Shown here piece after piece: positions 2,170-56,549 of a stretch of DNA of 64,000 nucleotides. Both the position numbers and the translations under genes were made by a program. Numbering within the stretch: the stretch's first letter is position 1; each line of letters starts with the position of its first letter. Location of the stretch: NCBI GenBank assembly GCA_963778025.1, contig CAVZTA010000003.1, positions 225,544 through 289,543 on the forward strand, in the 5' to 3' direction. The notes below the pieces were generated by a model. The model saw nothing but the letters and a program-made list of their open reading frames with translations, was not told the origin of the DNA and ran no database searches. Source of the stretch: an uncultured Chloroflexia bacterium (GTDB taxonomy: Bacteria; Chloroflexota; Limnocylindria; Limnocylindrales; CSP1-4).

Positions 2170-2307
2170 CTCCCGAGGGTACCGGTCAGGGACGGCCCGA
2201 CCGCGGTCAGTCGGACGTCGGCGCCGGCGTGGATGAGCGCCGTATCCGGTGAAGCCGAGCACCGTGGTGCGCCCACGCACGGTTCGGCGCGTTGCAACGG
2301 CGTTACG

Positions 2308-39604: not shown

Positions 39605-39649
39605 GGAGTGTTCGTCACGATCGCCTTGAGGCGGCGCTCGAGGCGGTCG

Positions 39650-41101
39650 TCAGGTCGCCGACGGAGGGCCGCCGCGGCGGCGGATCGCGCGCTCGGCGAG
39701 GACCCGCACGGTCCCGCGGAAGATCAGGCCGTGGACCGGGTAGAGCACGTACCAGTAGGCAAGACCCGGGAGGCCCTTGGGCTCGAAGAAGGCCGTCTGG
39801 ACCAGGCGGCTGCCGCCCTCGGCCGGCGTCACGTCGTATTGGAGCCAGGCGCGCCCCGGCACCTTCATCTCCGCCCGCAGGCGCAGCAGGGTCGGCCGGT
39901 GGACCTCCTCGACGCGCCAGAAGTCCAGAGCGTCCCCGACCCGGAGGGTGCCGGGGTCGCGACGGCGGAGCCGCATGCCGACGCCACCGACGGCGCGATC
40001 GATGAGGCCGCGAACGCGCCACAGCACGTTCGCGTACGGCCAGCCGCCGCGGCCGCCCACGCGCTCGATCTCGGCGAACACGGCGTCGGGTGGGGCGGGC
40101 ACGGCTCGCTGCCGGCGCTCCACGATCATCCCCTCGGTGGACGTGAGGGACGAGAGGCTCTCCCGGTCGGGGGCGGCGTACGCGTCGAACCACGTCGACA
40201 CCAGGTCGTCCGGATCGGCGCGGTCCATGGCCCGCCGGAGCGCTTCGATGTAGGGCACCGGCGAAAGGCCGAATGCCCGCGCCGGCCCCGGATCGCGGAC
40301 GACCACCTCGTTGCGCAGACCCTCGATCAGCGGCCGGGCGATGCCAGCCGGCACGGGCGAGATCAGGTTCACCCAGTACGAGGAGAGCCGCGGGGTCAGC
40401 ACCGGGACGGGGATCATCAGGCGGCGAAGGCCGCGCAGGCGCGCGTACGTGCGCATCATGTCGCCGTACGACAGGACGTCCGGGCCGCCGATCTCGACGA
40501 CGCCGGTCGTGGCGGGGTGCTCGAGTGCGCCCATGAGGTAGTCGAGGACGTCGCGGATCCCGATCGGCTGGCACCGGGTGCCCACCCACCGGGGCGTGAT
40601 CATGATCGGCAGCCGCTCCGTCAGGTGGCGCAGGATCTCGAACGACGCGCTGCCGGACCCGATGATCACCGCCGCGCGGAACTCGGTGACCGGCACCCCG
40701 TGGGCGGCGAGCTCGGCGCCCGCCTCATGGCGGCTGGCCAGGTGGTGCGAGAGGTCCGCAGCGTCGTCGCCCAGGCCGCCGAGATAGACGATCCGGGCGA
40801 TCCCCGCCCGTGCCGCCGCCAGCGCGAAGTTGCGGGCTGCCTGCCGATCGCGCTCCGCGAAGCCTCGCTCGCCCGCGCCCATCGAGTGCGCCAGGTAGTA
40901 CGCGACCGCCACGCCGTCCAGGGCGGGCGCGAGGGTCGCGGGCTCCAGGAGGTCGGCGGCCACGACGCGTGCACCCGGGAACCGGTCGGCGAGCGGGCGG
41001 GCGTCGCGGCTCATGAGGACGAGGTCGTGGCCCATCGCCTCGAGCAGTGGGACGAGGCGACCGCCGATGTACCCGCTGGCGCCGACGATGAGGATCCGCA
41101 T
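39650..41101 (-). CDS. NAD(P)-binding atypical SDR (NmrA-like) fused to a DUF2867-like domain
   Basis: ORF 39650..41308(-), ATG 41101: MRILIVGASGYIGGRLVPLL. C-terminal GGWPYANVLWRVRGLIDRAVGGVGMRL, WRVEEV, AWLQYDV. Confidence 0.85.
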   Translation of the reverse strand: MRILIVGASGYIGGRLVPLLEAMGHDLVLMSRDARPLADRFPGARVVAADLLEPATLAPALDGVAVAYYLAHSMGAGERGFAERDRQAARNFALAAARAGIARIVYLGGLGDDAADLSHHLASRHEAGAELAAHGVPVTEFRAAVIIGSGSASFEILRHLTERLPIMITPRWVGTRCQPIGIRDVLDYLMGALEHPATTGVVEIGGPDVLSYGDMMRTYARLRGLRRLMIPVPVLTPRLSSYWVNLISPVPAGIARPLIEGLRNEVVVRDPGPARAFGLSPVPYIEALRRAMDRADPDDLVSTWFDAYAAPDRESLSSLTSTEGMIVERRQRAVPAPPDAVFAEIERVGGRGGWPYANVLWRVRGLIDRAVGGVGMRLRRRDPGTLRVGDALDFWRVEEVHRPTLLRLRAEMKVPGRAWLQYDVTPAEGGSRLVQTAFFEPKGLPGLAYWYVLYPVHGLIFRGTVRVLAERAIRRRGGPPSAT

Positions 41102-41225
41102 GGCACGAGTATGGGTGGCGGCGTCGCGGGGGCGCTCTGCCGGTGGGTGACGAATGCGGCGACAGCCTCGGGGATCGGTCAGTCGATCGGCAGATCCTCT
41201 ACGCGGACTTTCCCTGGATGGCTGA

Positions 41226-41438
41226 TCATGGGCGGTGGATGATGGTGTTCCCTGCGGTGAATACGTCCTCGATCCTGCAACCAAACGTCTGTGCGATAAG
41301 GAACGCAAGGGGCAGCGACGGGTCGAACCGCCCGCGTTCGATCGAGATGACCGTCTGGCGCGAGACGCCGAGCACGTGTGCGAGGTCGGCCTGAGTCCAT
41401 CCGCGACCGAGCCGTCGTTCGGCGAGGTCGTTCCTCAT
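41226..41438 (-). CDS. small XRE/Cro-type HTH regulator (70 aa)
   Basis: ORF 41226..41438(-): RLGRGWTQADLAHVLGVSRQTVISIERGRFDPSLPLAFLIAQTFGCRIEDVF. Confidence 0.8.
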   Translation of the reverse strand: MRNDLAERRLGRGWTQADLAHVLGVSRQTVISIERGRFDPSLPLAFLIAQTFGCRIEDVFTAGNTIIHRP

Positions 41439-41617
41439 CCCAGCGCACGGTGGCGGTTCACGAGGTAGCGCAGACCTGCGTCGACCACACTCAGGCCGAT
41501 CAACGCCAGCAACACTGGCAACGCGTCGACGTCGTTTCTGCCGAACATCAGTACAACGGTCACGACGAGCGTCGCGATGAGGACGTCGAGGAACGCTCCG
41601 GATGCCGCCTGCTTCAT
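41435..41617 (-). CDS. small membrane protein partnered with the HTH gene; N-terminus apparently truncated at the island junction
   Basis: ORF 41435..41617(-), 4-nt overlap with the HTH gene. The frame stays open upstream to 41734 (SALALTAAYPSVSLGVWIFVSNHTVTRDPLGEESVELSW) without any start codon, and is closed by the recombinase-fragment TAG at 41735-41737. Confidence 0.5.
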   Translation of the reverse strand: MKQAASGAFLDVLIATLVVTVVLMFGRNDVDALPVLLALIGLSVVDAGLRYLVNRHRALG

Positions 41618-41734
41618 CCAGGACAGCTCGACACTCTCCTCGCCGAGAGGGTCACGGGTGACCGTGTGGTTGGAAACGAAGATCCAGACGCCGAGAGAAA
41701 CGGAGGGATAGGCCGCGGTCAGGGCGAGGGCGGA

Positions 41735-42250
41735 CTACACGCCGATCGCGTCAGCCACTCGCGCCCAACCCATGTCCTCCTCCCCTCCAGGCGCCGCAGG
41801 CAGACCGTCGTCACGCCAAGGCTCGAGTCGATCGAGGAACGCGCTGACCGCTTCGATTGACTCGCCGGCATCACGGCCGAGCTTGGCGGCCGCGTGGCGG
41901 GTCACATGGACGCCCGAGGCGGCTAAGCCAGTGGCTCGCAGATAGCGCCGGAACCGCAAGTAGAGCGTGTCACTGGACAGACCTCCGCACGCGTACCCGC
42001 CTGCCAACGGCGCAACGGCTCGCGGCTCGTGCTCGCGACGCGCTCGGGCTGACGGGGTCAACCTCCTGAACTTCAGCGGCCGCGCTCCGTACGTATATCG
42101 TCCACGGCCGAGATCCATCAACCCCGGAGGGCGCCTGGACCGCGCCCAGTTCATGCTCGAAGGAGGGAGGCTTCGCGGGTGGTTTACGAGTGTTTGCGGG
42201 GCTCCGTTCGGGTCGCGTCGAGGTCGTCGACCGCGTGGTCCGATAGAGCT
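41735..42250 (-). pseudogene. decayed C-terminal fragment of a tyrosine recombinase (older copy)
   Basis: ORF 41735..42154(-): LSSDTLYLRFRRYLRATGLAASGVHVTRHAAAKLGRDAGESIEAVSAFLD, about three-quarters identical by eye in DNA to 44173-44400. The region after FLD is frame-shifted, and the homologous frame reads TTVCL where the intact copy has TTVYL. N-terminal half missing. Confidence 0.6.
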
Positions 42251-42413
42251 GAGGGCAGATCACACGCAGCGACCATTGCGCTGCCAAGACGATTGACGGC
42301 CCGCGGGTCCGCTTTGGTGACGCGCGCGACAGGAGCTGACGCTCGGCCAGACGGAACCGGCGCACCATAAGGGTCGGCGAAGGAACCGGACCCCCGGATC
42401 TGGAGGAACTGCG

Positions 42414-42707
42414 ATGAGCGACTCGCGTACGCCCTACGGCAACGGCAACTTCCCGATGCTCCAGGAAGGCGACACCCTGACCGCCGCGCAGGTGCGCTTG
42501 ATCGCGAGCGCGATCAGCCAAGCCGGCAGCCAGCGGACGCTCGCTCGCTCAAGCGACGCCCCCGCCTTTGCATGTGACGAGAGTTCTTGCGTGTGCGTCG
42601 GTGACGACGACTGCAACGACATGTTCACGGGCCAGAGCTGCGGCCCCGAGGCCGTCTGCCTCTCAGACGGAGCCGGCAGCGTCGTCTGCATCTGTATCCC
42701 CGCGTAG
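42414..42707 (+). CDS. 97-aa protein with Cys-free N-terminal half and 8-Cys C-terminal module
   Basis: GGAGGA RBS 9 nt before ATG 42414; GC3-rich frame. C-terminus AFACDESSCVCVGDDDCNDMFTGQSCGPEAVCLSDGAGSVVCICIPA (C-x4-C-x-C-x5-C-x8-C-x5-C-x9-C-x-C). Confidence 0.6.
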   Translation: MSDSRTPYGNGNFPMLQEGDTLTAAQVRLIASAISQAGSQRTLARSSDAPAFACDESSCVCVGDDDCNDMFTGQSCGPEAVCLSDGAGSVVCICIPA

Positions 42708-42779
42708 GGATCGCCGGTGCGGTCCCGGCCGCGCGCACACCATGACCTCTTCGCGGTCCACGCCGTGACTGATCGGCCG

Positions 42780-43941
42780 TCACGGTTCCCGACCGCTGGC
42801 TCCAAGCGCCCGCAAGCCTTCGTCCATCGACTCGAGAGCACGTTTGCCCGCGTGCTGCTCCGCCGCAACGTCGGACTCAAGGAACTCCCGGACGCTCGCG
42901 AGCGCGCTTTCGCCTTCGTCCGTGAAGGCCTTCAGGGCATCGTCGAACTCGCGCAGCGTCTTCTCATGCTCCTGGTCGAGTCGGAATTCCTCCGCCGAGG
43001 CGCGATCCTCCTCTGACGCCGCGACCCTTTGTCGATCCAGTTCCAACCGCAGCTCGCTGTCCTTAGCGCCATCTTCGAGAACGCTGAATGCCGCGCTCAT
43101 CTCGGAACAAATATCTGGGGCTTGGTCGAGCACCCCCTTTGCGGTCGCCATGATGAACATCGCTCTGAACGCATCGCCATAGGCAACGCCTGGCATCGGA
43201 TCGATGAGGCGGACAACCCTCTCATGTACATTCACGACGCCGTACCGAAGTCTTCTCGCTTCATCGTGGTCGAGAAATGGCGTCAGGTCCGCCGCTAGCC
43301 TAACCAAGCGGTCGGCCGCGATCTTCCAGTTCTCGGGCGCGCTCGCGAAGCCGTAGAGCCGCCACTCGCTGCGATTCCGAACCATGTTCACCAAGGCTAG
43401 GGACGGTCGGGCCGAACATCGCGTCCACGTGGCCCCGAAGGCTCAACGCCACCGCCTTGATTCGGCGCTCGCGTTCGTCAGACCAGGGCAGGCCAATCGC
43501 CTCGGCAACTTCGCTCGACTCGGGCCCCGGTCCCACGAGGATCTCGACGGAGTTCGCCGCGAGGAGTTTGAGTTGGCGCGTCATCTGCTGTAGCGCGTGG
43601 AACGCAAGGCGCTCGTTCCGGCTACGCCATGCTCGTCGTTGCCACCGCTCGAGAGTGTTGGCGCCGATAACGACCGCGCCGATGCCGGCGGCGCCGGCCG
43701 CGAGGAGGTCGCGGACCACATCAAGCCACCAGACGTCGCCGGCGACCTTGGTCAACGCACCTGCGACGAGTAGCGCCAGCCAGACGAGAGCCGCGGCGAT
43801 GTAGAGGGATCGCGGGACTCGCGGCGGCTCGTCACTCGCGCCAGTACATCTTCTCTCTGCATGGTGTCGAGCCGCGTCGATGTCTCCCGCGCCGGCCAAT
43901 GGCCCGGTCGGTAGAGGGACGTTTCCGTGGCAGTGCGCCAC
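42780..43941 (-). CDS. hypothetical 2-TM N-terminal / long helical C-terminal protein (either one gene with a frame change near 43395-43410 or two genes overlapping by 95 nt)
   Basis: ORF 43300..43941(-): SLYIAAALVWLALLVAGAL, LLAAGAAGIGAVVIGA, then a helical region. ORF 42780..43394(-) continues with NRSEWRLYGFASAPENWKIAADRLVRLA. The GC3 signal passes from the first frame to the second exactly at the junction. Confidence 0.5.
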
Positions 43942-44172
43942 GCGTTATCCAATCCGACAGGATGAGGATAGGCTGCGTGCGTCTGTTTGATTGGCACCAT
44001 CCGCACGTCGGACGTTCTTCGAAACTGGGGTACCCAACCTCCGCGCTGGTGGCGTCTCCGTATGTTGTCCCTCCGGTCACCACGGCCCGCGCGGCAGCCT
44101 AGGAAGTTCCTGAGTCTCATGCCTAGGGGTTCGCGGAGCCGTTCGGCCCTGTTGCAATGTGGCCCTTACAGC

Positions 44173-45103
44173 TCAAATCCCGAGCGACTCTGCTACGCGC
44201 GCCCAGCTGCCGTCACGTTCACCCTCCAACCGCCTTAGGTAGACAGTCGTGACGGCGAGGCTCGAGTGATCGAGGAACGCGCTGACCGCCTCGACGGAGT
44301 CGCCCGCGTCACGGCGCAGCTTGGCCGCGGTGTGGCGGGTGATGTGCACGCCCGATACTCGGAGGCCGGCTGAGCGCGCAAGTAACGGCGGAACCGCAGG
44401 TAGAAGGTGTGGCTCGATAGGCCGACATCTCGCGTACCCGCCTGCCACAGTGACTCACTTGGCTCCATGGCCGCGAGATCCTTGCCCAGGTCGCCGAAGA
44501 CTCGCGACGATCGCCTCGAATGCCGGTCGCGGCAGCTCGCGACGTCCACGCTTGCCGCCCTTGCCGCGGTACGAGTATTGGGCCACGTCCCCGTCGACCG
44601 TGAGGTCCTTCGCCTGGAGGCCCATGACCTCGGCGCGGCGCCGGCCGGTCAGGAGAAGCGTCAGGACGATCGCGCGGTCGCGGCGCCCAGCGACGGTGTG
44701 AGGGACGACCGCGAGGAGGCGCTTCACCTCCTCCGCGGAGTAGCCGCGCGCCGGAGCGACCACGGTGCGCGGCCGCTCGACGGCGTCGCACGGGTTCGAC
44801 GCGACGAGACCCATCCGGATGAGGAAGCGGTAGAAGGAGCTGACGCAGGCGATCCGCGCGCCGATCGTGGCGGCCGCCGGCGGCCGTCCTGACGCGCCGA
44901 TTCCATGTGCGTACGCCAGCACGTCCGCCGGCTTGATGGTGTCAGGCGTCCGGCCGGCAAAGAATGGCCAGAGCATGCGGGAGTAGCTCTCGACCGTCCG
45001 GTCGAGAGCCCGATCGGTTGCCCTTCTCGACGAGGAACGCGTACAGCGCCTGCTCCCATTTGGAGCCATCGACTGGTCGGGCGAGCGACTGGTGCTCGGA
45101 CAT
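44173..45103 (-). CDS. tyrosine recombinase / phage-type integrase (full length but spread over four frame segments)
   Basis: GGAGG RBS before ATG 45103 (MSEHQSLARPVDGSKWEQALYAFLVEKGN). Then RTVESYSRMLWPFF..LLLTGRRRAEV (ORF 44455..45129), GLSSHTFYLRFRRYLRA (ORF 44235..44549), GVHITRHTAAKL..LAVTTVYLRRL (ORF 44173..44448). Frame changes near 45015, 44500 and 44375. Confidence 0.8.
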
Positions 45104-45557
45104 GTATCCACCTCCATCGGGTGGCACATGACTCACTCGCCGCGCCCAGGAAAGTAACCACTCTGGCCCGTTGTGGCAGCCTCGAGACCAGCGGGCCGCG
45201 GTGGCGGGCGCGGAGCGAGGCCACGCGGGGCTGATCCAAGGCGACCGGTCGCTGTGCCTGCACATCGGCCACCACCCGCGCCATGCCTCAGAGGGTCGGT
45301 TCGTTCGGTCCCGCGTCTCGCCCGGTGTCGCCGTAACCGAGCTTCGACTGGCTCTCTGCTTATCGACGGCCGAAGAAGTGCGGACGTCCACTACATGACA
45401 GTGGCGAAAGCAGGACCGCCGAGGACTCGAGACGAAGCTGGTCCACCAGCGCGACTAACGCGTCGAGGTTCAGTTAGACGCCAGCCGACGCGGGCGTCGT
45501 AGTGTGGCCGCCTCGCTGAACTGCCGCTGTCGTGGGAGATCAGGAGAGCTCTGGCGG

Positions 45558-45571
45558 CGTGGCTAGCCACG
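45558..45571. promoter_or_regulatory. 14-bp perfect palindrome upstream of the SGNH gene (operator candidate)
   Basis: CGTGGCTAGCCACG, 85 nt upstream of ATG 45656, inside a 550-nt non-coding stretch. An AGAGCTCT palindrome lies at 45544-45551. Confidence 0.3.
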
Positions 45572-45655
45572 TCGCTAAGCCCTAGCAGTCAACGGGCTTC
45601 GCGGGGGAAGTGCGGAGTCGCCCGTCCCTCGGTAACTCGGTGAAGGAGGCATGTG

Positions 45656-47596
45656 ATGGCGACTCCGCGTATTCGCCCTCCGCGACCCGACGCGGTCGCC
45701 ACGAGCGCGACAGCCCTGGGGACGCCAGGAGCGGAGTTCCGAGTCGCGGCCTTCGGCGACTCCCTCATGTGGGGTCAGGGGCTGCGGCGCGCCGACCAAT
45801 TCTCGTGGCTCATCAAGGAACAGCTAGGGATCGCTGCCAAGAAGACACCGGTGCTGGTGGCGGACCGCTCGCGATCAGGAGCGCAGATCGACGAACGCGC
45901 TGTCCAGCGCCAAGAGTTCGTCAGCCGCTTCCCGGAAGTCTTCAAGAGTCGGACTGAACGAACACGCTTCATCGACGGGACCCTGCCAGGCGCCCAGATC
46001 CCTGCCGAGCGACTCTACGGCGAGATACCGGCGACATTCCCGACGGTTCGCGCCCAAGTCGCTGCGGTATCTGACGAGGTCGGAAAGACCGTTCGTGTCG
46101 CGCTGGTAAGTGGTGGGGCGAATGACATCGGCTTCGATGAAGTCATCAATCCGACCGAATTCCCCGGTGCGTTCATCGAGCGATGGGATGGCAGGATCAA
46201 GGAGATCGCCTACGAGCTCGTCCTTGACTTGATCGCCCGCGTTCGGCGCAAGTGCCCCAAGGCCGTCATCCTCCAGTTCGGCTACTACATGCCGCTCTCG
46301 TACCGATCGAGCCGATCGGACATCGAGGCATTCTTCAAGCACGAGCTCGACAACGATGTCGGTTGGTGGCTCAACAAGCACGTTCCAGGAGTCCTGGACC
46401 TGCTCCCGGGCGTTGACAGCGTGAGCGTTGAGCAGATGGTCCTCGAGGCCCGCATCCGTGGCGTCTGGGCTGCCGGTCGTGCCCAGTACTGGATGCGCAA
46501 GGCCGTCGCCGACGCCAACGCCGACGACGCCGCCCGGGGGCCAGGTGTCGTCTACGTGCCCGCGCCCTTCACCGACGACATGGCTGCCTTCGGCGCACAG
46601 CCGATGCTCCATGAGGACTATTCGCACCCGACGACCGACCCGGCCCGCCAGCTCCGCGAGGCCCGATGTCCTCGAGCCGCCCACTTGGGTGCGCTGCGCG
46701 ACTTGTGGCCGAAGCTGATCCTCGGGACGCCATCGGCCGCGACCGTGAAGGCCCTCCGCAGCTCCCTGACAGGACCCCAACCCCTGCTCGATGGCCTCGC
46801 CGGCGACTTGTCCGGCCGTGAGCGTTTGCGCCTCATCCCGATCATCACAGCGGAGATCCGGCGCATCCAGCGCGCGCTGATCGCGTCGTTCCTGCATCCC
46901 AACACCGAGGGCGCGCGACGCTATGCGGCTGAGGCGGTCCGGCGCTACAACGTGCACACCCAGCGGATTGCCGCGATCGGAACGGTCGTAAAGCCCACAT
47001 CCCCGGCTCAGTTGCCGGGTGGATCAGAGACGCTCGAGGAACGGCTTGAGCGTTTCGGGCTGCGGGGGACTGGCCCCTTGTCGGCGGACGTTGGCCACGA
47101 GGAAGTGGACTCGCTCGCGGTCACGGTCGTGACTGAGCGCGCCTCGGAGCGGTTGTTGGCGCCCGACATGACGCTCGTGGTCACCAACCGATTGGTCGGG
47201 GGCGCCGCGGCGGGGCGCGTGGTGACCCGCGAGTTCTTGCTCAACTTCCCGTATCGCATCACGAACGTACTGGGCGCGCAGCTGGTGCGGAAGTTCTATC
47301 CACACTTCGAACCGGCGGTGACCAACTTCTTCACACTCAACACGTCTGGTGAGCTTCGCCTAGAGCAGATCACCGGGTTCGCCATCGCCATGGGACCCGA
47401 TCCCGTCGGCGGCAAGTTCGGGAACGTGTGGCGTCCTCGTCGCGTCCAGCTTGAGATCAATGGGCGCGTCGTTCACGATCAGACATTTCGAAACCGCGAG
47501 CTCCGCCCTGGCCAGTCGTTGACGCTGGACTATCCGCCTCCCGCTCGGCGGCCGGGTGGAACCGGGACGGTCGCGACCGCGCGAGCCGGAGGCTGA
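45656..47596 (+). CDS. SGNH/GDSL-family hydrolase (lipase/esterase) with C-terminal PLAT/LH2-like beta-sandwich; no signal peptide
   Basis: ORF 45653..47596. GAAGGAGG RBS. Block I FGDSLMWGQG, block III LVSGGANDIG, block V SFLHPNTEGARRYA. C-terminal roughly 170 aa beta-rich (SLAVTVVTERASE..MTLVVTN..GNVWRPRRVQLEINGRVV). Confidence 0.75.
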   Translation: MATPRIRPPRPDAVATSATALGTPGAEFRVAAFGDSLMWGQGLRRADQFSWLIKEQLGIAAKKTPVLVADRSRSGAQIDERAVQRQEFVSRFPEVFKSRTERTRFIDGTLPGAQIPAERLYGEIPATFPTVRAQVAAVSDEVGKTVRVALVSGGANDIGFDEVINPTEFPGAFIERWDGRIKEIAYELVLDLIARVRRKCPKAVILQFGYYMPLSYRSSRSDIEAFFKHELDNDVGWWLNKHVPGVLDLLPGVDSVSVEQMVLEARIRGVWAAGRAQYWMRKAVADANADDAARGPGVVYVPAPFTDDMAAFGAQPMLHEDYSHPTTDPARQLREARCPRAAHLGALRDLWPKLILGTPSAATVKALRSSLTGPQPLLDGLAGDLSGRERLRLIPIITAEIRRIQRALIASFLHPNTEGARRYAAEAVRRYNVHTQRIAAIGTVVKPTSPAQLPGGSETLEERLERFGLRGTGPLSADVGHEEVDSLAVTVVTERASERLLAPDMTLVVTNRLVGGAAAGRVVTREFLLNFPYRITNVLGAQLVRKFYPHFEPAVTNFFTLNTSGELRLEQITGFAIAMGPDPVGGKFGNVWRPRRVQLEINGRVVHDQTFRNRELRPGQSLTLDYPPPARRPGGTGTVATARAGG

Positions 47597-47646
47597 CAAA
47601 CCGCGACAAAGGCTTTCTTGACAACGCCGGCTGGGGAGCGCAGGAC

Positions 47647-48108
47647 ATGGAGCCATTCAGCACCGGGATCGCATTGATGGCGCTATTCGTTTCCGCAATT
47701 TCGCTCATTCTGTCGTGGCGGTCGGAAGTGCAACGGCGAAAGGCCGAAGATTTGCGAGATCTACTCGGCGAGAAGGAGACAGTCGGTTTCGCCGCACTCA
47801 GGCTGTTGAGGGAAGGCCTGCCGACGAGTGACAAGAGGGCCCGAGCTCTCGTCATAGATGCAGTGATGCAAGCGTGCGTCCTTGAGGGCTCTGACCGATC
47901 GCGGGCGCTGCTGTTTCGCGTTCTGGAGATAAATTGCGCCGTATACGGGAAGGAGCTGACGGCCACCCTCGACGGGATTGAACACGCCTATACATCGATG
48001 GCCGCCTACCGATTTGACGCTAAGGAGCTGGATCTCGCGAACGGTCGGCTTCGACTTGGGGCCGCGCGAAAGATCCTTGATGCCTGCGGCGCTGCGTCCC
48101 GTACCTAG
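47647..48108 (+). CDS. hypothetical N-terminally TM-anchored helical protein (153 aa)
   Basis: GGGGAG RBS 8 nt before ATG 47647. MEPFSTGIALMALFVSAISLILSW TM helix, then a helical region. The lowest-GC gene of the window by eye. Confidence 0.55.
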   Translation: MEPFSTGIALMALFVSAISLILSWRSEVQRRKAEDLRDLLGEKETVGFAALRLLREGLPTSDKRARALVIDAVMQACVLEGSDRSRALLFRVLEINCAVYGKELTATLDGIEHAYTSMAAYRFDAKELDLANGRLRLGAARKILDACGAASRT

Positions 48109-48336
48109 CAGTGGTCAGTCTGGCGGCTTCACCACTATCACCAGTTCGTGTTCAGCCGCGCGGCTGATGGCGCGCGTGTCGTTCCCAGGCTGGCATTCGC
48201 GTTCGTAGACTGCCGCGACGCGCCCGGACGGCGAGGCGACCGCTAAGTAGCTCCACAGGACCGGAGATCGTGTCGGCCCACGTGACGCCAGCCGCCGAGG
48301 CGAACGGTCTGGCGCTCGCGCTTCCCGAGGTGGTTA

Positions 48337-48414
48337 TGGCGCGCCCGGAGGGATTTCGAACCCCCGACCCCGTGGTCCGAAGCCACGTGCTCTGGTCCGC
48401 TGAGCTACGGGCGC
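48337..48414 (-). tRNA. tRNA-Arg (anticodon UCG), CCA encoded, 8-nt T-loop as assembled
   Basis: Reverse complement folds as GCGCCCG TA GCTC AGCGGACCA GAGC A CGTGG CTTCGGA CCACG GGGTC GGGGG TTCGAAAT CCCTC CGGGCGC G CCA. The anticodon loop CTTCGGA gives UCG. Confidence 0.9.
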
Positions 48415-48499
48415 GCGGACCGCGGATGATACAGGCTCGTTCCGCAGCACCCGGTCGGAACCATGGCCAACGGCGCGCTCGATGCGCGAGACTGTCGCC

Positions 48500-50146
48500 A
48501 TGGCCATCGATCCGCGGGCCGGGAAGCCCGCTGACCCGTCGATGCTGGTCGACGTCGACCGGCTGATCGCCGCCTACTACGACGCGAAGCCCGATCCCTC
48601 GATCCCGGAACAGCGCGTGGCATTCGGGACGAGCGGGCATCGTGGGTCGTCACTGAAGACCTCGTTCAACGAGGGCCACATCCTCGCCGCGAGTGCGGCC
48701 GTCGCGCGATATCGGCGGAGCCACGGGATCGACGGGCCCTTGTTCATGGCCCTGGACACCCACGCCCTGTCGATGCCGGCCTATCGGACGGCGCTCGAGG
48801 TCCTCGCGGCGGCCGGGGTCGACGTCCTGCTCCAGCCGGACGACGAGGTGGCACCGACCCCGGCGCTGAGCCACGCGATCCTGACCTATAACCGCGACCG
48901 GTCGACCGGTCTCGCCGACGGCATCGTCGTGACCCCGTCGCACAACCCGCCCGAGGACGGTGGCTTCAAGTACAACCCGCCGACGGGCGGCCCGGCCGAC
49001 ACCGACATCACCGGCTGGATCCAGGACGAGGCGAATGAACTTCTCAAGTCCGGACTTGCAGAAGTCAAGCGAACACGATGGGAGCAGGCTCGGCCGAGTG
49101 CCGGGAGCTACGACTTCCGTGCGAACTACGTCAACGACCTCGGCTCGGTCATCGACCTCGAGGCCATCGCGTCGTCCGGCCTGCGTATCGGCGTGGATCC
49201 CATGGGCGGGGCGTCGGTCGACTACTGGCCGCTCATCGCCGAGCGCTACCGGCTCGACCTGACGGTCACCAACTCGACGGTCGACCCGCAGTTCGGCTTC
49301 ATGACGGTCGACTGGGACGGCCGCATCCGGATGGACCCGTCATCGCCGTCCGCGATGGCACGGCTCGTGGAGCTGCGCGACCGGTTCGATGTCGCGTTCG
49401 GCAACGACACGGACGCTGACCGGCACGGCATCGTCACCCCGTCGGCCGGCCTGATGAACCCGAACCACTTCCTCGCGGTGTGCATCGCCTACCTGTTCGG
49501 CGGGGCGCGCGGGTGGAGCACCGAGGTGGCGGTCGGCAAGACGCTCGTCTCGTCCGCGATGATCGACCGCGTGACGGCTGACCTCGGGCGGCGGCTGCTC
49601 GAGGTGCCAGTCGGGTTCAAGTGGTTCGTCGCCGGGTTGATCGACGGCTCGGTCGGGTTCGGCGGCGAGGAGAGCGCCGGCGCGAGCTTCCTGCGGCGCG
49701 ACGGGACGGTCTGGACGACCGACAAGGACGGACTCATCCCGGCGCTCCTTGCCGCGGAGATGACGGCGCGAACCGGCGGTGACCCCGGCGTCACGTACGA
49801 CGAGCTGACGAAGCGCTTCGGCGCGCCCGCCTACAGGCGCGTGGACGCGCCCGCGTCGCCGGCCGAGAAGGCGATCCTCGCGAAGCTCTCGCCCGACGCC
49901 GTTCGGGCGGAATCGCTCGCCGGCGACCCGATCACCGCGATCCTCACCACGGCGCCAGGCAACGGCGCGCCCATCGGCGGCCTCAAGGTCCAGACCGGTC
50001 AGGGCTGGTTCGCCGCCCGGCCGTCGGGCACGGAGAACGTCTACAAGGTCTACGCGGAGAGCTTTCGCGGCGAGGAGCATCTCGCCCGGCTCATCGAGGA
50101 GGCCCAGGGTGTCGTGAGCGCGGCACTCGGCGCGGCAGTGGCGTAG
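48500..50146 (+). CDS. pgm: phosphoglucomutase, alpha-D-glucose phosphate-specific
   Basis: ORF 48482..50146, ATG 48500: [77 protein letters not shown]. Confidence 0.95.
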
Positions 50147-50150
50147 CGAG

Positions 50151-51355
50151 GTGGAGGCGCTGCTGCTCACGAACGAGTACCCGCCGAACGTCTACGGCGG
50201 GGCCGGCGTCCACGTCGAGTACCTCGCGCGCGAGCTCGCGAAGCTCATCGAGGTCGACGTGCGCTCGTTCGGCGAGCAGGACGAGAAGTCGGGGTCGCTG
50301 CGCGTTCGGGGCTACGGCGTGCCGCTCGACCTCTCGACGACGGCCGACAACCTGAAGCCGGTGTTCGGCGCGTTCGGGCGCGACCTCGCGTGGGTCGCCG
50401 ACCCCGTCACCGCCGACCTCGTGCACGTGCACACGTGGTACGCGCATCTGGGCGGGATCCTCGCGAAGCTGGCGTACGGGATCCGCTCGTGCTCACCGTG
50501 CACTCGCTCGAGCCGCTGCGGCCGTGGAAGCGCGAGCAGCTCGGCGGCGGGTACGACGCATCGGCGTGGGTCGAGCGGACGGCGATCGAGCTGGCCGACG
50601 CGGTCATCGCGGTGTCCAAGGAGACGCGCGAGGACGTGCTGCGGCTGTTCTCGGTCGACGAGGCCAAGGTCCACGTGATCCACAACGGCATCGATACCGA
50701 GGAGTACCGACCGCAGACGGCGACCGACGCGCTCGAGCGGTTCGGGGTCGGGCTCGATCGGCCGTACGCGTTGTTCGTGGGCCGGATCACGCGCCAGAAG
50801 GGGATCATCCACCTGGTCCGGGCGATCCGGCATCTGCCGACCGAGACCGCCGTGGTGCTGGTGGCCGGCGCGCCGGACACCAAGGAGATCGCGGCCGAGA
50901 TGGCGGCGGCGGTCGAGGAGGCGCGGACGACCCACCCGCACATCACGTGGATCGCGGAGATGGTCGACAAGCCGTCGATGCGGCAGCTCTATTCGCACGC
51001 GGCGGTGTTCGTGTGCCCGTCGGTGTACGAGCCGTTCGGGATCATCAACCTCGAGGCGATGGCGTGCGAGACGGCGGTCGTGGCCAGCGCGGTCGGCGGT
51101 ATCCCGGAGGTCGTCGTGCCCGGCGAGACGGGGCTGCTCGTGCCGTTCGAGGCGGCGGGTGGGACGTCGTTCGAGCCGAGCGATCCGGATCGGTTCGAGC
51201 GCGACCTGGCGGCCGCGATCGAGGAGCTGATGGACGACCCGGCGCGCCGCGAGGCGATGGGTCGCGCGGGTCGCCAGCGGGCGGTCGAGCACTTCGGCTG
51301 GGATGCGATCGCGCGTCGGACGGTCGACCTGTACCGGACGCTCGTCCCGGGTTGA
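50151..51355 (+). CDS. glgM: GT4 alpha-glucan synthase of the actinobacterial GlgM/GlgA type (1-nt deletion-like frame change near 50481-50485)
   Basis: ORF 50151..50678: LLLTNEYPPNVYGGAGVHVEYLA..VHVHTWYAHLGGILAKLAYGI. It continues in ORF 50390..51355: LVLTVHSLEPLRPWKREQLGGGY..FVGRITRQKG..VCPSVYEPFGIINLEAMA..VGGIPEVV. Confidence 0.85.
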
Positions 51356-51438
51356 CCCCGCGCCGGGTGGTAGGCGAGCGATGCGGGGCGCCGGCACCAC
51401 CCCGGGTGGTGCGCCCGCGCGCGCGCCGCGTGCGATCG

Positions 51439-52863
51439 CTAGTGGCGGGCCATCCAGCGGGCGAGGCTCGGGCCTGACGGCGGCTTCTGCGAGCGGTCCG
51501 CCGCGGCGTCGATCCGGCCGAGGGCCCATTGCGCGTAGCGAACACCGATCCAGCGGAACGGCTCGGGCTCCCACGAGCGCGAGCGATGGCCGACCAGCGG
51601 CAAGTCCGTCCGTTCCGACTGCTGGTCCGTCAGCAGCTCGGCCAGCGTCCGCCCAGCGAGGTTCGCCGTCGATACGCCGTGGCCGATGTACCCGCGCGCC
51701 GACGCGACACCGGACGCACGGTCGAACGTGATCGACGGGTGCCAGTCCCGCGGCATCCCCAGCGGCCCGCCCCAGGCATGGGTGAAGCGCACATCGCGGA
51801 GTGTCGGGAACCAGGCACGCACGAAGCCGCGCAGCATCTCGTGGGTCGGGGCGTGACGGTCGTACGCGTCGCGGATCGGCGACCCGAAGCGGTACGGCGC
51901 ACCGCGCCCGCCGAACAGGATCCGACCGTCCTCGGTCCGCGACAGGTAATCGACCGACAGCCGCGTCGACGCCAGCGTCTCGCGCTCCGTCCAGCCGATC
52001 TCCTGCCACTGGGCGTCCGACAACGGCTCGGTCAGGACGATCAGCGAGTACACCGGGATGAGCTGCCGATGCAGTCGCGGGAAGCGCGTGAGATAGGCCT
52101 CGCCCGCCAGCACGATCGCCGAGGCGCGCACATCGCCGCGGTTCGTCCGCAACACGGCCCGCCCGCCGGTCGCGGGTGAGGACGGCGACCAGTCGACCAC
52201 CGGCGTTCCTTCGACGATCCGGCCGCCAAGCCGCTCGACCAGCCGTGCCAGCCCGCGTGCCAGCCGCCCGGGATGGATGACCGACGAGTCCGGCGTGTAG
52301 ATGCCGCGCACGACGCCGGCGACGCGCACCCGCTCGGAGACCTCCGGCCCGCTCAGCAGCTGGTAGCGCTCGCCGAAGCCGTACCGGACGTACTCCTCGT
52401 AGCTCTCCTCGATCGCCGGCACCTGGTGCGCTCCGCGGGCGACGACCAGCGCGCCGCCGCGATGCCAGCCCGAGTCGAGCCCTTCCTCGCGCGACACCCG
52501 TCCGACCTCGTCGACCGCGGCGTAGGTCGCCGCCTGCGTCCGAGCCGCGGCCTCCCGGCCGTGGAGTCTCGCGAGCCGATCCATCGAGATGTTGAGGTCG
52601 GGCGCGCACCACGCCCCGTTCCGCCCGGACGCCCCGAACCCGGCGGTCTCGGCCTCGACGACCAGCACCCGCAGCGACGGGTCGTGGCGGAGCAGGTAGT
52701 ACGCGGTCCACAGCCCGGTGTAGCCCGCTCCGAGGATCGCGATGTCGACGTCGACCGATCCATCGAGCGGCGGGCGCGGCGTCAGGTCGTCGCCGGAGGT
52801 CTCGAGCCAGAACGAGACCTCGCTCGGCTTCAGCGTCGACGGCTGGACATCCACGACGGGCAC
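51439..52863 (-). CDS. FAD-dependent oxidoreductase (DAO family)
   Basis: ORF 51439..53283(-): VDIAILGAGYTGLWTAYYLL, ETAGFGASGRNGAW. Start uncertain (GTG 52863 or 52854, or ATG 53001). Confidence 0.8.
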   Translation of the reverse strand: MPVVDVQPSTLKPSEVSFWLETSGDDLTPRPPLDGSVDVDIAILGAGYTGLWTAYYLLRHDPSLRVLVVEAETAGFGASGRNGAWCAPDLNISMDRLARLHGREAAARTQAATYAAVDEVGRVSREEGLDSGWHRGGALVVARGAHQVPAIEESYEEYVRYGFGERYQLLSGPEVSERVRVAGVVRGIYTPDSSVIHPGRLARGLARLVERLGGRIVEGTPVVDWSPSSPATGGRAVLRTNRGDVRASAIVLAGEAYLTRFPRLHRQLIPVYSLIVLTEPLSDAQWQEIGWTERETLASTRLSVDYLSRTEDGRILFGGRGAPYRFGSPIRDAYDRHAPTHEMLRGFVRAWFPTLRDVRFTHAWGGPLGMPRDWHPSITFDRASGVASARGYIGHGVSTANLAGRTLAELLTDQQSERTDLPLVGHRSRSWEPEPFRWIGVRYAQWALGRIDAAADRSQKPPSGPSLARWMARH

Positions 52864-52932
52864 GCTAGCCGGGATCCGACCGTCCGTGTGGGCTGGTTGC
52901 GAGAAGCAGCGGACGACGGCACACTCCCCGCC

Positions 52933-53871
52933 GTGCCCCGTCCCGCACGTCGTCGATCGGCGACGCGTCTCCGGACGCTCCCGTGGTCCGGCCGCGCTCA
53001 TCGGCGTCCTCGGCTTCGCGTCCGTGGCCCGCTCCTGGCCGCGCTCATCAGTGCGGTCGTCCTCGCGTTCGTCATCCCGTTCCTCGGGCAGCGCGCGCAC
53101 GTCGACGATCCGCTCGTCGGTCCGGGGGAGGCCGTCGGGTTCCAGGCAACGCCCACGCCGATCGCGACCGCTCCGCCCGCGCAGCCGGCCGCGCCACCGA
53201 CGGCCCCGCCGCCGACGGCCGCGCCGCGGGTCGCCTCGGTGGACCCGGGCCCGGACGATGTCCGGAACGCGCGGGCGGTCCACCTCGCGATGGCGCCGCT
53301 GCCCCCGTCGGTCCTCATCGGCTATGTCTGGCCGATCCCGAAGAGCCGCCTGACGCAGCCGTTCGGCGTGTCACCGTTCGGCGGCGGCGTCTACGAGGGG
53401 AAGCCGTTCCACGACGGCCTCGACCTCGCCACGTTCTGCGGCGACAAGGTCGTCGCGGCGCATGCCGGGACGGTGATCGCGGTCGGCCGACGGTTCGACG
53501 AGTGGATCGGCTGGCGGGGCAGCCTCGAGCGGTACCAGCTGCGCCTCACGAAGCTGCACCTCTGGAGGACGCTGCCGATCGTCGTCGTCATCGACGATGG
53601 CAACGGCTACCGCAGCATCTATGCGCACTTCGAGCGAACGACCGTGAAGCGCGGTCAGGTGGTGGAAGCGGGCCAGCTGATCGGCTACGAAGGGGCGTCA
53701 GGGCACGCGAGCGGCTGCCATCTCCACTACGGCCTGTTCTCGCCGGCGGAGAGCCGCACGTTCACCGTCGACCCCAAGGCCGTGAAGAAGATGCTGCTGC
53801 CGCATCACCAGACGATGCGCATCGACCCGCTGCTCGTCCTGCCGCAGCGGAACGACCTCGACCTCGACTGA
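52933..53871 (+). CDS. membrane-anchored M23-family metallopeptidase
   Basis: C-terminal part of ORF 52273..53871: TM LLAALISAVVLAFVIPFL, Pro/Ala linker, HDGLDLA, YRSIYAHF, GASGHASGCHLHYGLF. Start GTG 52933 (alternative 52888). Confidence 0.85.
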   Translation: MPRPARRRSATRLRTLPWSGRAHRRPRLRVRGPLLAALISAVVLAFVIPFLGQRAHVDDPLVGPGEAVGFQATPTPIATAPPAQPAAPPTAPPPTAAPRVASVDPGPDDVRNARAVHLAMAPLPPSVLIGYVWPIPKSRLTQPFGVSPFGGGVYEGKPFHDGLDLATFCGDKVVAAHAGTVIAVGRRFDEWIGWRGSLERYQLRLTKLHLWRTLPIVVVIDDGNGYRSIYAHFERTTVKRGQVVEAGQLIGYEGASGHASGCHLHYGLFSPAESRTFTVDPKAVKKMLLPHHQTMRIDPLLVLPQRNDLDLD

Positions 53872-53929
53872 GGGGTCGTCCGCCGGTCCACCGCTGGGTG
53901 GTGGCCGACCTGACCGAGGACCGACGAGC

Positions 53930-55384
53930 TCAGGCGATCCGTCGATAGCGCCGCGCGACCAGCGCGTATTTCGGGACCCGTGCCAGGGCCTCCGCGGCGG
54001 TCGGCCCCGGCGAGCCATCGCGCCGCTCGATCGCCAGCCGCGGATCCACGCCTGGCCGCGCTCGCCGCGCATCGACCGTGGCGAGGTCGCGGACCGTTCC
54101 CGGCTGGTCCGCCGGCCCCAGCTGCGCCAGCACCGACTCGTCCCAGACCCCGGTCTCGGACGTCGCGCGGACCACCGCCTCGGCGCGCCACGCCGGCCGG
54201 CGAAGGAGGATCCGCCGCCACGCCTCGCCCATCGGCGGCTCGACCGTCCCATCGCCCGGCCTCGGTGTCGCCGAGAGATGCTCGCCGCGCGCCCACAGCG
54301 CGGCCTGGTGGAGCAGCGCGTACTCGTCGAGGTCGGCGTAGTCGGCCAGTCGATCGGCCGGCGAGCCCTCGCCGAACAGCGCCCGGATCGACGGCCCGAA
54401 GACGTCCGCGAGGTCGAGGTCGATGGCCCGGACCGTCCGATGGAGGTACACGTGCTCGTACAGGAACAGGCGCGCCATGAGGAACTGCTCCAGCGCGCCC
54501 AGGCCCGACTCGTGGAGCGTGAGCCCGGTCGCGCCGATGAACGCGTAGCGCCGCAGCCGTTCGGGGTCGACGGGCCCGGTCGCGACGCCGGTCAGGTACG
54601 CGTCCCGTCGGACGTAGTCGAGGTTGTCGGCCGTGAACACGCCCGACAGCAGTGGCTGGAGCCAGCGCACCCAGGGCGGCATCGACGCGTCGTCGAGGGC
54701 GGGTTTCGAGATGAGGAACGCCACCCAGCGCGGGTCGATCGCCTCACCGTCCGCGAAGCGGTCGCGCTCCGCGACGGCGCCGGGCGCACGTCGCAGCCCG
54801 CGGATGAGCGCGCCCAGCTCGCGCTCGATGATGAGCTGGCTGAGGTCCTCGTGGGTGAGCGCCTTGGCACCCGTTCGCCGAGCGTCGACCGGGGCGGGGA
54901 AGGCGGCCAGCACGTGCTCGTCGAAGAAGTGGGCGAACGGCCCGTGGCCCACGTCGTGGAGCAGGCCGGCGACCCGCAGCGTTTCGACGACCAGCCCCTC
55001 GGTCGGGACACGGTCGCCGCCGGCACGCAGGGACGCAGCCAGCGAGGGATACAGCGTCCGCGCCCACAGCCCCGCCTCGTGCATCACGCCCAGACCGTGC
55101 GTGAACCGGGAGTGCTCGGCGGTCGGGAAGACCCAGCGCGCCGACTGCAGCTGGCTGACCCGGCGGAGCCGCTGCAGCCAAGCGGTGTCGAGCAGGTCCT
55201 CCTCGGCGACGTCCTCGTCGAGCAGCCCCGCGGCGCGGGTCTCGACCGGCGTCAGCCGCTTGGTGAGCTCGAGGTAGCCGTGGATGGGATCGGAGATGAG
55301 ATTGACGGCGGCGAACGGGTGCCGCCGCGGGGGACGTCCGGCCAGCCCGCTCAGGGCACCGCGATCCGGATCTCCTGCGACCAC
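53930..55384 (-). CDS. SAMHD1-like HD-domain (d)NTP triphosphohydrolase
   Basis: ORF 53930..55537(-), GTG 55384: ISDPIHGYLELT, WLQRLRRVSQLQSARWVFPTAEHSRFTHGLGVMH, LLHDVGHGPFAHFFD. Confidence 0.85.
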   Translation of the reverse strand: MVAGDPDRGALSGLAGRPPRRHPFAAVNLISDPIHGYLELTKRLTPVETRAAGLLDEDVAEEDLLDTAWLQRLRRVSQLQSARWVFPTAEHSRFTHGLGVMHEAGLWARTLYPSLAASLRAGGDRVPTEGLVVETLRVAGLLHDVGHGPFAHFFDEHVLAAFPAPVDARRTGAKALTHEDLSQLIIERELGALIRGLRRAPGAVAERDRFADGEAIDPRWVAFLISKPALDDASMPPWVRWLQPLLSGVFTADNLDYVRRDAYLTGVATGPVDPERLRRYAFIGATGLTLHESGLGALEQFLMARLFLYEHVYLHRTVRAIDLDLADVFGPSIRALFGEGSPADRLADYADLDEYALLHQAALWARGEHLSATPRPGDGTVEPPMGEAWRRILLRRPAWRAEAVVRATSETGVWDESVLAQLGPADQPGTVRDLATVDARRARPGVDPRLAIERRDGSPGPTAAEALARVPKYALVARRYRRIA

Positions 55385-55451
55385 GCCGAGACGGTACCGC
55401 CTCGGTCGCGCGGCCGTGGGTGGCGGTGTGTCCCCGCATCCACCCCGATGC

Positions 55452-56549
55452 TCAGGCCTCGTACCGGGACAGGGCTCTCCGCAGCCGGGCCGTGACGTCG
55501 TCGCGGAGCTCCGTGGGCTCCAGGACCTCGACCTCATCGCCCCACGAGAGGACCCACAGTCGGACCTCGATCGTGCCGGCGACGCGTGCCGTCCAGCGGA
55601 GCGAGCCGTCCGCCTCCTCGCGGACCGCCTGCGTCGGATGCCAGGTCGCCTCCTGCACCCGGGCGGCGACCGACGGCGCGAACCGCAGCACCACGGTCAC
55701 CTCGTCCTGGTCGCCGATGATGTCCCAGGCGCGGCGCAGGACGCGCTCCAGGTCGCCCGCGTCCGGCGCGTCGAAGCGGTCGTTCGTGACGCGCAGGTCG
55801 ACGATCCGTTCGATCTTGAAGGTGCGCATCGCGTCGCGGGTCTCGTCGAGGCCCATCAGGTACAGCGCATGGGTCGTGAGCGACGGCTGGAGCAGGTACG
55901 GCCGAACGCGAGCGAGCCGTGGCTCGCGGTCGACACCGTCGTACGTGGCCGGGGTGTAGCGGAACTCGACGACGCGGCGGTCGGCCCACGCCTGGGTCAG
56001 GTCGGCCAACCGACGGTTGAACGCCGCGTCCACGCCCCGTTCCGAGAGCACCGCCACCGCCCGCTCGACGTGCTCCCGGAGCGCCTCGGGCAGGCCCGCC
56101 TCCAGCTTCTGGAACGCCGAGGCGAGGTTCGGGTCGTACCGGTCGGCATAGCGCGTCATGAGCCGTGCCGACAGGACGACCGCCATCGCCTCCTGGGTCG
56201 TCAGCCGGAGCGGCGGCAGGAATGCGCCCGCCTCGACCCCCCAGCGACCGTCCTCGCTCCACACCGGGATGCCGAGCTCGCCCTCGATCGCCCGGAGGTC
56301 GCGATAGACGGTGCGCACGGCCATGTCGGTCTGGCGCGCGATCTCCTGCGGCTTGACGCCCTGCTCGCCGTACGCCTCCAGGATGTGGACGACCCGCAGC
56401 AGGCGAGCGGTCTTGTCGCGCTTCGCGCGGACGCGGTCGCTCGGGTCCGCCGGCTCGAGCTCCGGTTCGGCGTCGGGATCGGTGTCGGAATCGGTGTCGA
56501 AGTCGTCGGGGTCGTCGAGTCCTGCGAGGTCGGCGGGCTGGTCGCGCAT
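55452..56549 (-). CDS. HTH-WYL-WCX transcriptional regulator (PafBC-like) with acidic N-terminal tail
   Basis: ORF 55452..56549(-): DDPDDFDTDSDTDPDAEPELEP, RLLRVVHILEAYGEQGVKPQEIARQTDMAVRTVYRDLRAIE. WYL region VEFRYTP..RVRPYLLQPSLTTHALYLMG. Confidence 0.85.
   Translation of the reverse strand: MRDQPADLAGLDDPDDFDTDSDTDPDAEPELEPADPSDRVRAKRDKTARLLRVVHILEAYGEQGVKPQEIARQTDMAVRTVYRDLRAIEGELGIPVWSEDGRWGVEAGAFLPPLRLTTQEAMAVVLSARLMTRYADRYDPNLASAFQKLEAGLPEALREHVERAVAVLSERGVDAAFNRRLADLTQAWADRRVVEFRYTPATYDGVDREPRLARVRPYLLQPSLTTHALYLMGLDETRDAMRTFKIERIVDLRVTNDRFDAPDAGDLERVLRRAWDIIGDQDEVTVVLRFAPSVAARVQEATWHPTQAVREEADGSLRWTARVAGTIEVRLWVLSWGDEVEVLEPTELRDDVTARLRRALSRYEA

Follow-up and report, generated by a model that had tools for sequence, protein, structure and literature searches.

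The subject of this analysis is gene A, which encodes a 646-residue protein in a 64,000-nt stretch of an uncultured Chloroflexia bacterium (hereafter the window; assembly GCA_963778025.1, contig CAVZTA010000003.1, positions 225,544 to 289,543 of the forward strand), together with gene B, the small membrane-protein gene that follows it. Our comparisons indicate that A is an SGNH hydrolase whose active site is apparently intact, and that its C-terminal module is, according to structure models, a cryptic, family-restricted PLAT-like domain. We favour, with slightly better than even confidence, the reading that A works on its own at lipid interfaces, as an acyl-esterase or (phospho)lipase that is docked by its PLAT-like domain and carried on mobile DNA, and for which B is not a dedicated partner. 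That A acts as a conflict effector (in defence, in abortive infection or as a toxin) we infer more tentatively, at somewhat less than an even chance.

Gene A encodes a signal-less SGNH hydrolase

Gene A starts at ATG 45656, with an in-frame GTG at 45653 and an AAGGAGG ribosome-binding site (RBS) 6 nt upstream of the ATG. The three SGNH motifs that an earlier note on this DNA had quoted are all present: FGDSLMWGQG (Ser36, codon 45761-45763), SGGANDIG (Asn156) and FLHPNTEG (His414, codon 46895-46897). Their catalytic residues are conserved in an alignment of 30 A-family sequences, where S36 is kept in at least 90% of members and the neighbouring M38-W39-G40-Q41-G42 is invariant. Also invariant are G75 of block II (SRSG(75)A), N156 of block III (GG(A)N(156)D), and S411 and H414 of the S411-F-L-H414-P-N segment. 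In block V the invariant Ser411, three residues ahead of His414, occupies the canonical Asp position, which can be compared with the Streptomyces scabies esterase 1esc, an enzyme lacking the acidic member of the triad. The match to Pfam Lipase_GDSL_2 (PF13472), a family that is flagged on many A homologues in precomputed data, places block V of A on D321-x-x-H324. Since that site is not conserved and H414 is invariant, we take His414 as the catalytic base.

An AlphaFold2 (AF2) model of full-length A, built with the family alignment, reached a predicted local distance difference test (pLDDT) score of 83.9 and a predicted template-modelling score (pTM) of 0.86. In its SGNH domain, block III and block V are separated by a helical insert of ~200 aa. 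Foldseek searches with this model returned clostridial alpha-toxins, followed by SGNH esterases and then by lipoprotein lipase and lipoxygenases; the SGNH esterases/lipases (1esc, 8ik1, 7e16, 5mal, 4hyq) matched at E 2.5e-5 to 5e-3 with target-based template-modelling scores (TMt) of 0.49-0.61. Streptomyces enzymes of this kind (S. scabies esterase, 1esc; S. rimosus lipase, 5mal; S. albidoflavus phospholipase A1, 4hyq) have in common with A the SGNH fold, blocks I-III and the putative block V. Unlike A, they are secreted, measure ~230-300 aa and have neither a PLAT domain nor the helical insert. The sequence relation is marginal, at E ~0.7 when a profile of A is compared with the Protein Data Bank (PDB).

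The statement in the earlier note that A has no signal peptide agrees with our results. A hydropathy scan of the whole protein found no hydrophobic, transmembrane (TM) or signal segment, and the nucleophile Ser36 lies so near the N-terminus that there is no room for a cleavable signal. The main A clade is likewise without a twin-arginine (Tat) or other export signal.

Full-length relatives of A fall into 79 clusters (38-55% identity), nearly all of them singletons and mostly from soil metagenomes; Rhizobium leguminosarum, Mesorhizobium and Thermomicrobiales are the named genomes among them. A scan of 185,579 species genomes contained ~10 full-length members. These ~10 belong to Solirubrobacter, Conyzicola, Arthrobacter, Lentzea, Amycolatopsis and Saccharothrix, and in addition to one alphaproteobacterium and one Chitinophagaceae metagenome-assembled genome. 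For the analyses of gene context, we examined the loci of 80 of 179 genome matches and 80 of 289 metagenome matches. A subset of the homologues carries a semi-conserved tail past the PLAT domain (PP-x-L-x4-I/V-x2-V-x-P-L..., alignment columns ~800-840), which the window copy does not have.

A cryptic PLAT-like domain at the C-terminus

The beta-rich C-terminal module that had been described from the sequence was recovered in the models at residues ~483-625, and its proposed likeness to PLAT/LH2 sandwiches was borne out by structure prediction at the level of the fold only. Residues 463-646 were modelled alone (pLDDT 88.4) and searched with Foldseek against the PDB. Ranks 1-48 were exclusively PLAT/LH2-bearing proteins, which lends the fold assignment good support. 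The best match was alpha-toxin (E 1e-6; query-based template-modelling score, TMq, 0.56; root-mean-square deviation 2.6-3.6 Å over ~145-159 columns). The same ranks include pancreatic lipase-related proteins, lipoprotein lipase, 5-, 8R-, 11R- and 15-lipoxygenases and Rab6IP1.

This domain appears to be specific to the A family. In a phmmer search of 1.8 billion representatives it was confined to the C-terminus of A-family proteins or their fragments, and a profile of the domain found no PLAT protein among all PDB sequences. The long repeat proteins that the C-terminal query also matched were rejected as PLAT candidates, being Ig-like CARDB/Cna_B proteins. Because the domain escapes sequence profiles, databases label A-type proteins merely as "SGNH/GDSL hydrolase" or "hypothetical", and our literature search found no paper on an SGNH-PLAT fusion.

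Among the known systems closest to A is the alpha-toxin of Clostridium perfringens (1ca1, 1qm6, 1kho, 1olp), which also joins an N-terminal lipolytic domain to a C-terminal PLAT-like sandwich. It differs in its all-helical zinc phospholipase C (PLC) catalytic domain, in its signal peptide and secretion, and in having no detectable sequence similarity to A. The same design is found in pancreatic lipase-related proteins and lipoprotein lipase (alpha/beta-hydrolase with C-terminal PLAT) and in lipoxygenases (N-terminal PLAT), which matched A at probabilities of 0.97-1.00 and TM-scores of 0.36-0.47, below alpha-toxin; these enzymes are, however, eukaryotic and built on other catalytic scaffolds.

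Gene B is not a conserved partner of gene A

The gene directly downstream of A is as the earlier note described it. B begins 50 nt past the A stop codon, has its own GGGGAG RBS, carries a TM helix at residues 3-26 and has the lowest GC content of the island genes (0.593). The further claim, that the two genes form a module, did not survive a co-occurrence analysis of the homologues. With B as query, tblastn found no match in 80 A-related genome loci, and no relative of B turned up in any of the 170 loci searched in all, among them ~30 distinct loci where the A homologue is full-length. We also compared, all against all, every open reading frame (ORF) within 3.5 kb of 40 full-length A loci (~30 non-redundant), and no neighbour family of any kind emerged around the distinct loci. 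The clusters returned by this comparison were rejected as antisense shadows of A or as duplicate contigs. At most A loci a co-directional downstream gene is missing, and about three quarters are without a TM-protein neighbour of B's sort. Since no B relative occurs at the A loci searched, no neighbour is shared and the B family is found in other contexts, we regard a conserved A-B module as refuted.

B has no match in Pfam, NCBIfam or PADLOC (the last at E up to 1), and NCBIfam has none for A either. Four relatives were found in a first search and at least 111 clusters by profile search; they are 145-190 aa long with a TM helix at the N-terminus and share the motif LLGEKETVGFAA, and their sources include Streptomyces, Amycolatopsis, Solirubrobacteraceae, Chitinophagaceae and metagenomes. 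No member was found in 2.9 million viral contigs, and B is therefore not a typical phage holin. The contexts of four relatives are given in Table 1. One of them (L172) comes from a contractile-injection locus of Streptomyces that encodes Pvc16_N and an AAA ATPase close by; the C-terminal toxin domain of its eCIS_core protein was considered as kin of A and rejected as unrelated. Judging by these contexts, the B family may be a toxin-associated membrane protein. Sequence comparison places B in a separate small-membrane-protein family and not as A's dedicated partner.

It could still be argued that A and B are a genuine local pair, in which A is a membrane-attacking lipase that B neutralises or positions, while other lineages use non-homologous small TM proteins for the same task. 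Several observations point this way. The 50-nt gap, the RBS of B and the lack of a terminator between the genes suggest co-transcription, and B is probably co-transcribed with A here. Both genes are flanked by the integrase (44173-45129) on one side and by the tRNA on the other. TM-anchored proteins also stand 24-39 nt downstream of, or overlap, the A homologues of L002, L089, L104 and L001, and B relatives directly follow an eCIS_core/glycine-zipper toxin (L172) or lie inside a Tc-toxin cluster (L082). However, such a downstream gene is missing from the majority of A loci noted above, the five downstream TM proteins (that of the window included) are mutually non-homologous with no detectable similarity, B relatives occur also in unrelated contexts (L081, L174), and it would be atypical for a single immunity family to serve toxins that are unrelated. 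We consider a genuine pair unlikely, and a local functional link between A and B possible.

A tRNA-associated island carries both genes

The genomic island in which the earlier note had placed the pair could be delimited by comparison with a close relative (L171), retrieved via the cluster, at 90% identity, to which the phosphoglucomutase next door belongs. In blastn, window positions 39634-41726 and 48263-56000 are collinear with L171 at 92-97% identity, and 41727-48262 is without a counterpart. Because this segment is missing from the near-identical relative, A and B are recent horizontal arrivals. The GC content of the island is 0.63-0.69 (A 0.659) against 0.71 (0.714) for the window. The island consists, in order, of an integrase C-terminal remnant, three small ORFs, a frameshifted integrase, a spacer, A and B. 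Pfam Phage_int_SAM_1 and Phage_integrase are spread over the two ORFs of the frameshifted integrase and stay under the gathering score. The two integrase copies are spaced 2438 nt apart, which suggests tandem accretion. A search for attachment (att) repeats gave no clear pair, merely a weak 16-nt tRNA match at 42228-42243. L171 holds a different insertion of 2.8 kb nearby, which makes the locus a recombination hot spot.

The insertion of L171 (5828-8614) comprises a 157-aa ORF and the gene for an nSTAND1/AAA protein of 392 aa; beside the tRNA-Arg of L171 lies a tRNA-like remnant (9191-9697). Within the window island, the 97-aa ORF at 42414-42707 (+) has a Cys-rich C-terminal half (CDESSCVCVGDDDCNDMFTGQSCGPEAVCLSDGAGSVVCICIP), no family match and the highest GC content at third codon positions among the island ORFs (0.86). 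Two overlapping ORFs of 204 aa and 213 aa occupy 42780-43941 (-), and in the 213-aa ORF there are 2-3 TM segments; PADLOC matches this ORF weakly to a "2TM effector" (E 0.0099). Just beyond the island, at 41226-41617 (-), an XRE-type helix-turn-helix gene (70 aa) and a 60-aa ORF with two TM segments overlap; this pair is kept in L171 at 92% identity.

The non-coding leader and the perfect 14-bp palindrome that had been reported ahead of A do exist, although the leader measures 526 nt rather than 550 and the palindrome does not stand out. Perfect 14-bp palindromes number 19 in the window against a mean of 13.5 in block shuffles, 6.4% of shuffled leaders hold one, and the core CGTGGCTAGCCACG is missing from all 170 fetched loci. 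With a frequency within chance and no conservation, its role as an operator or regulatory element was rejected. Rfam found only the tRNA in 44900-48500 and no structured RNA in the spacer, and a search of the spacer for sigma-70-like promoters gave no match and no outstanding promoter or terminator signal.

Table 1 Coordinates of the features described. Positions are those of the window or, where a locus is named, of that locus.
Feature	Position	Strand	Basis or remark
Gene A, signal-less SGNH hydrolase with C-terminal PLAT-like domain, 646 aa	45656-47596	+	ORF, profile, AF2 model
SGNH catalytic domain, residues ~27-445	45734-46990	+	Conserved residues, Foldseek, sub-threshold Pfam score
PLAT/LH2-like beta-sandwich, residues ~483-625	47102-47530	+	Domain model, Foldseek
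Gene B, 153 aa, one N-terminal TM helix, LLGEKETVGFAA-motif family	47647-48108	+	ORF, hydropathy, profile search
Strain-specific 6.5-kb island, 3' side of tRNA-Arg	41727-48262	.	blastn against relative L171, GC
Tyrosine-integrase C-terminus remnant (older copy)	41735-42154	-	~80% identical over 88 nt to second copy; no Pfam match of its own
Frameshifted tyrosine integrase	44173-45129	-	N-terminal part 44455-45129, C-terminal part 44173-44448
Divergent intergenic region between frameshifted integrase and A, 526 nt	45130-45655	+	Short low-confidence ORFs at most
Perfect 14-bp palindrome CGTGGCTAGCCACG	45558-45571	.	Letters confirmed; chance level, unconserved
tRNA-Arg (TCG), island integration site	48337-48414	-	ARAGORN, Rfam; shared with L171
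TM protein downstream of A homologue, L002, 189 aa	12064-12633		
TM protein downstream of A homologue, L089, 192 aa	10073-10651		
TM protein downstream of A homologue, L104, 195 aa	3605-4192		
TM protein downstream of A homologue, L001, 488 aa	11904-13370		
B relative, L081			Among unrelated genes
Region with B relative, L082	1-12501		Within Chitinophagaceae Tc/ABC-toxin cluster, between TcB/TcC-like and TcA-like genes
Region with B relative, L172 (= L173)	1545-3952		75 nt 3' of eCIS_core (DUF4157-type) protein with glycine-zipper C-terminus
B relative, L174			Among housekeeping genes
Defence genes near A homologue, L086	3505-6851		Abi_C, DUF4411/Peptidase_M78; integrase and resolvases also in the neighbourhood
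Genes near A homologue, L090	638-17263		SIR2_2, ThsB-type TIR, further TIR_2 genes, Nmad2, MazG_C; IS21 also in the neighbourhood
Complete CBASS near A homologue, L096	1898-3920		Cyclase, E2, 1TM effector; ~1.6 kb from A homologue
Gene near A homologue, L087			M78-HTH
STAND NTPase, L006	7185-9620		Directly 5' of A homologue, same strand
STAND NTPase, L084	4326-7610		Directly 5' of A homologue, same strand
Transposases near A homologues, L083, L088, L089			
A homologue in predicted 77-kb prophage, L175	5784-7608		Between resolvase/HipA-like kinase module and gpA-type large terminase
Zinc-dependent phospholipase C domain protein, L092, 874 aa	1697-4321	-	~1.6 kb 5' of A homologue, divergent; domain of the alpha-toxin catalytic family

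Gene A homologues in neighbourhoods with mobile and conflict genes

The neighbourhoods of A homologues are mutually unrelated and rich in mobile and conflict genes, with other loci ordinary. Defence genes lie within 6-8 kb of A in four loci (Table 1): L090 (SIR2/TIR), L096 (a cyclic-oligonucleotide-based antiphage signalling system, CBASS), L086 (Abi_C, DUF4411/M78) and L087 (M78). A Pfam census of L001-L010 added more integrase and transposase domains near A homologues. With A as query, tblastn found no match among the plasmids of PLSDB or the phages of INPHARED, and the sole match in IMG/VR was the prophage L175. To judge by gene context, A travels as single-gene cargo of islands, of one predicted prophage and of defence islands.

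In two unrelated actinobacterial loci, L006 and L084 (and also at L007:4502-7873), STAND NTPases with NB-ARC/NACHT or AAA_16 domains plus TPR were found. Between them and A lie 177-350 nt, which in L084 include a hairpin, and no obvious terminal motif is common with A. These proteins could be sensors, or their position could be a coincidence in STAND-rich genomes; a role as A's sensor partner is unproven, and the proteins of L006 and L084 are non-homologous.

The same neighbourhoods bear on the possibility that A is simply an accessory esterase of lipid metabolism, with substrates such as storage lipids or lipid-linked intermediates at the inner membrane face, and hitch-hikes on mobile DNA with no role in conflict. 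This would be consistent with the lack of a recognised defence signature in A (PADLOC), with the conservation of neither a sensor nor a partner, and with the many neighbourhoods that contain purely housekeeping or unrelated genes. On the other hand, its spread is very patchy (the ~10 full-length members in the species genomes and the mostly singleton clusters described above), it resides repeatedly in islands, a prophage and defence islands, and no metabolic operon context recurs. A purely metabolic role seems rather unlikely to us.

We also considered whether A could be an exported toxin or competition factor, released non-classically (by lysis, a holin-like route or contractile injection), with the PLAT-like domain binding the target membrane. 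The architecture is analogous to that of secreted alpha-toxin, remote Bacteroidota homologues have Tat signals, L088 encodes an eCIS_core protein 4.6 kb away from its A homologue, a protein with a zinc-phospholipase-C domain neighbours that of L092, and B relatives occur in eCIS and Tc-toxin loci. Nonetheless, Actinomycetota, Alphaproteobacteria and Chloroflexota all have this signal-less architecture yet share no secretion system in its vicinity, genes for secretion or injection were not found to be consistently linked to A, and the B family is missing from the viral contigs, hence no typical phage holin. Export of this kind is quite improbable in our assessment.

Proposed mode of action

In the mechanism that we propose for a standalone, PLAT-docked A, Ser36 would be the nucleophile, Gly75 and Asn156 would form the oxyanion hole and His414 would act as the base, with Ser411 at the usual Asp position. 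The PLAT-like sandwich, which is rigidly joined to the catalytic domain in the model, would dock the enzyme on a membrane or lipid surface; this is expected from the established role of PLAT in alpha-toxin, in pancreatic and lipoprotein lipases and in lipoxygenases. At the docked lipid surface, the SGNH site could then cleave acyl esters, a lipid substrate being likewise predicted by analogy. Because the main A clade lacks an export signal, the enzyme would by default act on the cell's own membrane from the cytoplasmic side, and since signal-less forms of A occur in phyla whose envelopes differ greatly, the cell's own inner membrane leaflet would be the simplest target. Such an attack on the self-membrane would need control, perhaps via the helical insert, and would suit a toxin role or one akin to abortive infection. 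A reached the window with the now-decayed integrase, inside the 6.5-kb tRNA-Arg island.

Lipases that degrade membrane lipids are known from defence islands and mobile DNA, such as the patatin-like CapV of CBASS and the Tle lipases of type VI secretion systems, which have Tli immunity proteins. They offer a possible working analogy for A. However, they have patatin, GXSXG or phospholipase D folds, and they come with a conserved cyclase signal or immunity gene, neither of which is seen for A. A bolder version, which we regard as rather unlikely, would make the SGNH-PLAT family an unrecognised single-gene membrane-lipid conflict effector that is inhibited by its insert until triggered, with B-like TM proteins as optional adaptors or safeguards. 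Such an effector might act in abortive infection or superinfection exclusion and would spread via islands and prophages.

These interpretations need to be read with caution, considering that several of our observations weigh against a mobile, PLAT-docked lipid enzyme that acts alone inside the cell. The Pfam Lipase_GDSL_2 match to A (E 5e-7, 30.8 bits) falls short of the gathering score of 32.9, Pfam PLAT (PF01477) does not match A at E up to 1, so that kinship with PLAT is one of fold only. PADLOC-DB v2 leaves A unmatched at E up to 1, although several homologues lie in defence islands or mobile elements; a toxin or defence role, as the earlier note had envisaged, is possible. Defence genes stand near only ~4-5 of ~26 distinct A loci, a minority. 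Remote Bacteroidota homologues (~30% identity) have canonical Tat motifs (SRRQFLK in P0078; SRRSFVK in L010, 9875-11791), and some lineages therefore export an A-type enzyme; the ancestral or an alternative site of action of the family may lie outside the cytoplasm. Finally, in five loci an N-terminally TM-anchored protein lies 24-50 nt past, or overlaps, the A stop, and B relatives adjoin membrane-directed toxins in two of their four other contexts. It may be that a membrane partner matters after all.

Implications

The case of A and B is a caution for the annotation of genomic islands: the reading of a single locus as an effector with a small TM partner can fail a simple co-occurrence test. 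PLAT docking domains were previously known on alpha/beta-hydrolase, zinc-PLC and lipoxygenase scaffolds. If PLAT docking of A holds true, SGNH would be an added scaffold for this known design of a lipid enzyme joined to a PLAT domain. A signal-less, putatively membrane-docking esterase that is carried on islands, in a prophage and in defence islands would stand as a concrete candidate for a new effector that attacks membranes.

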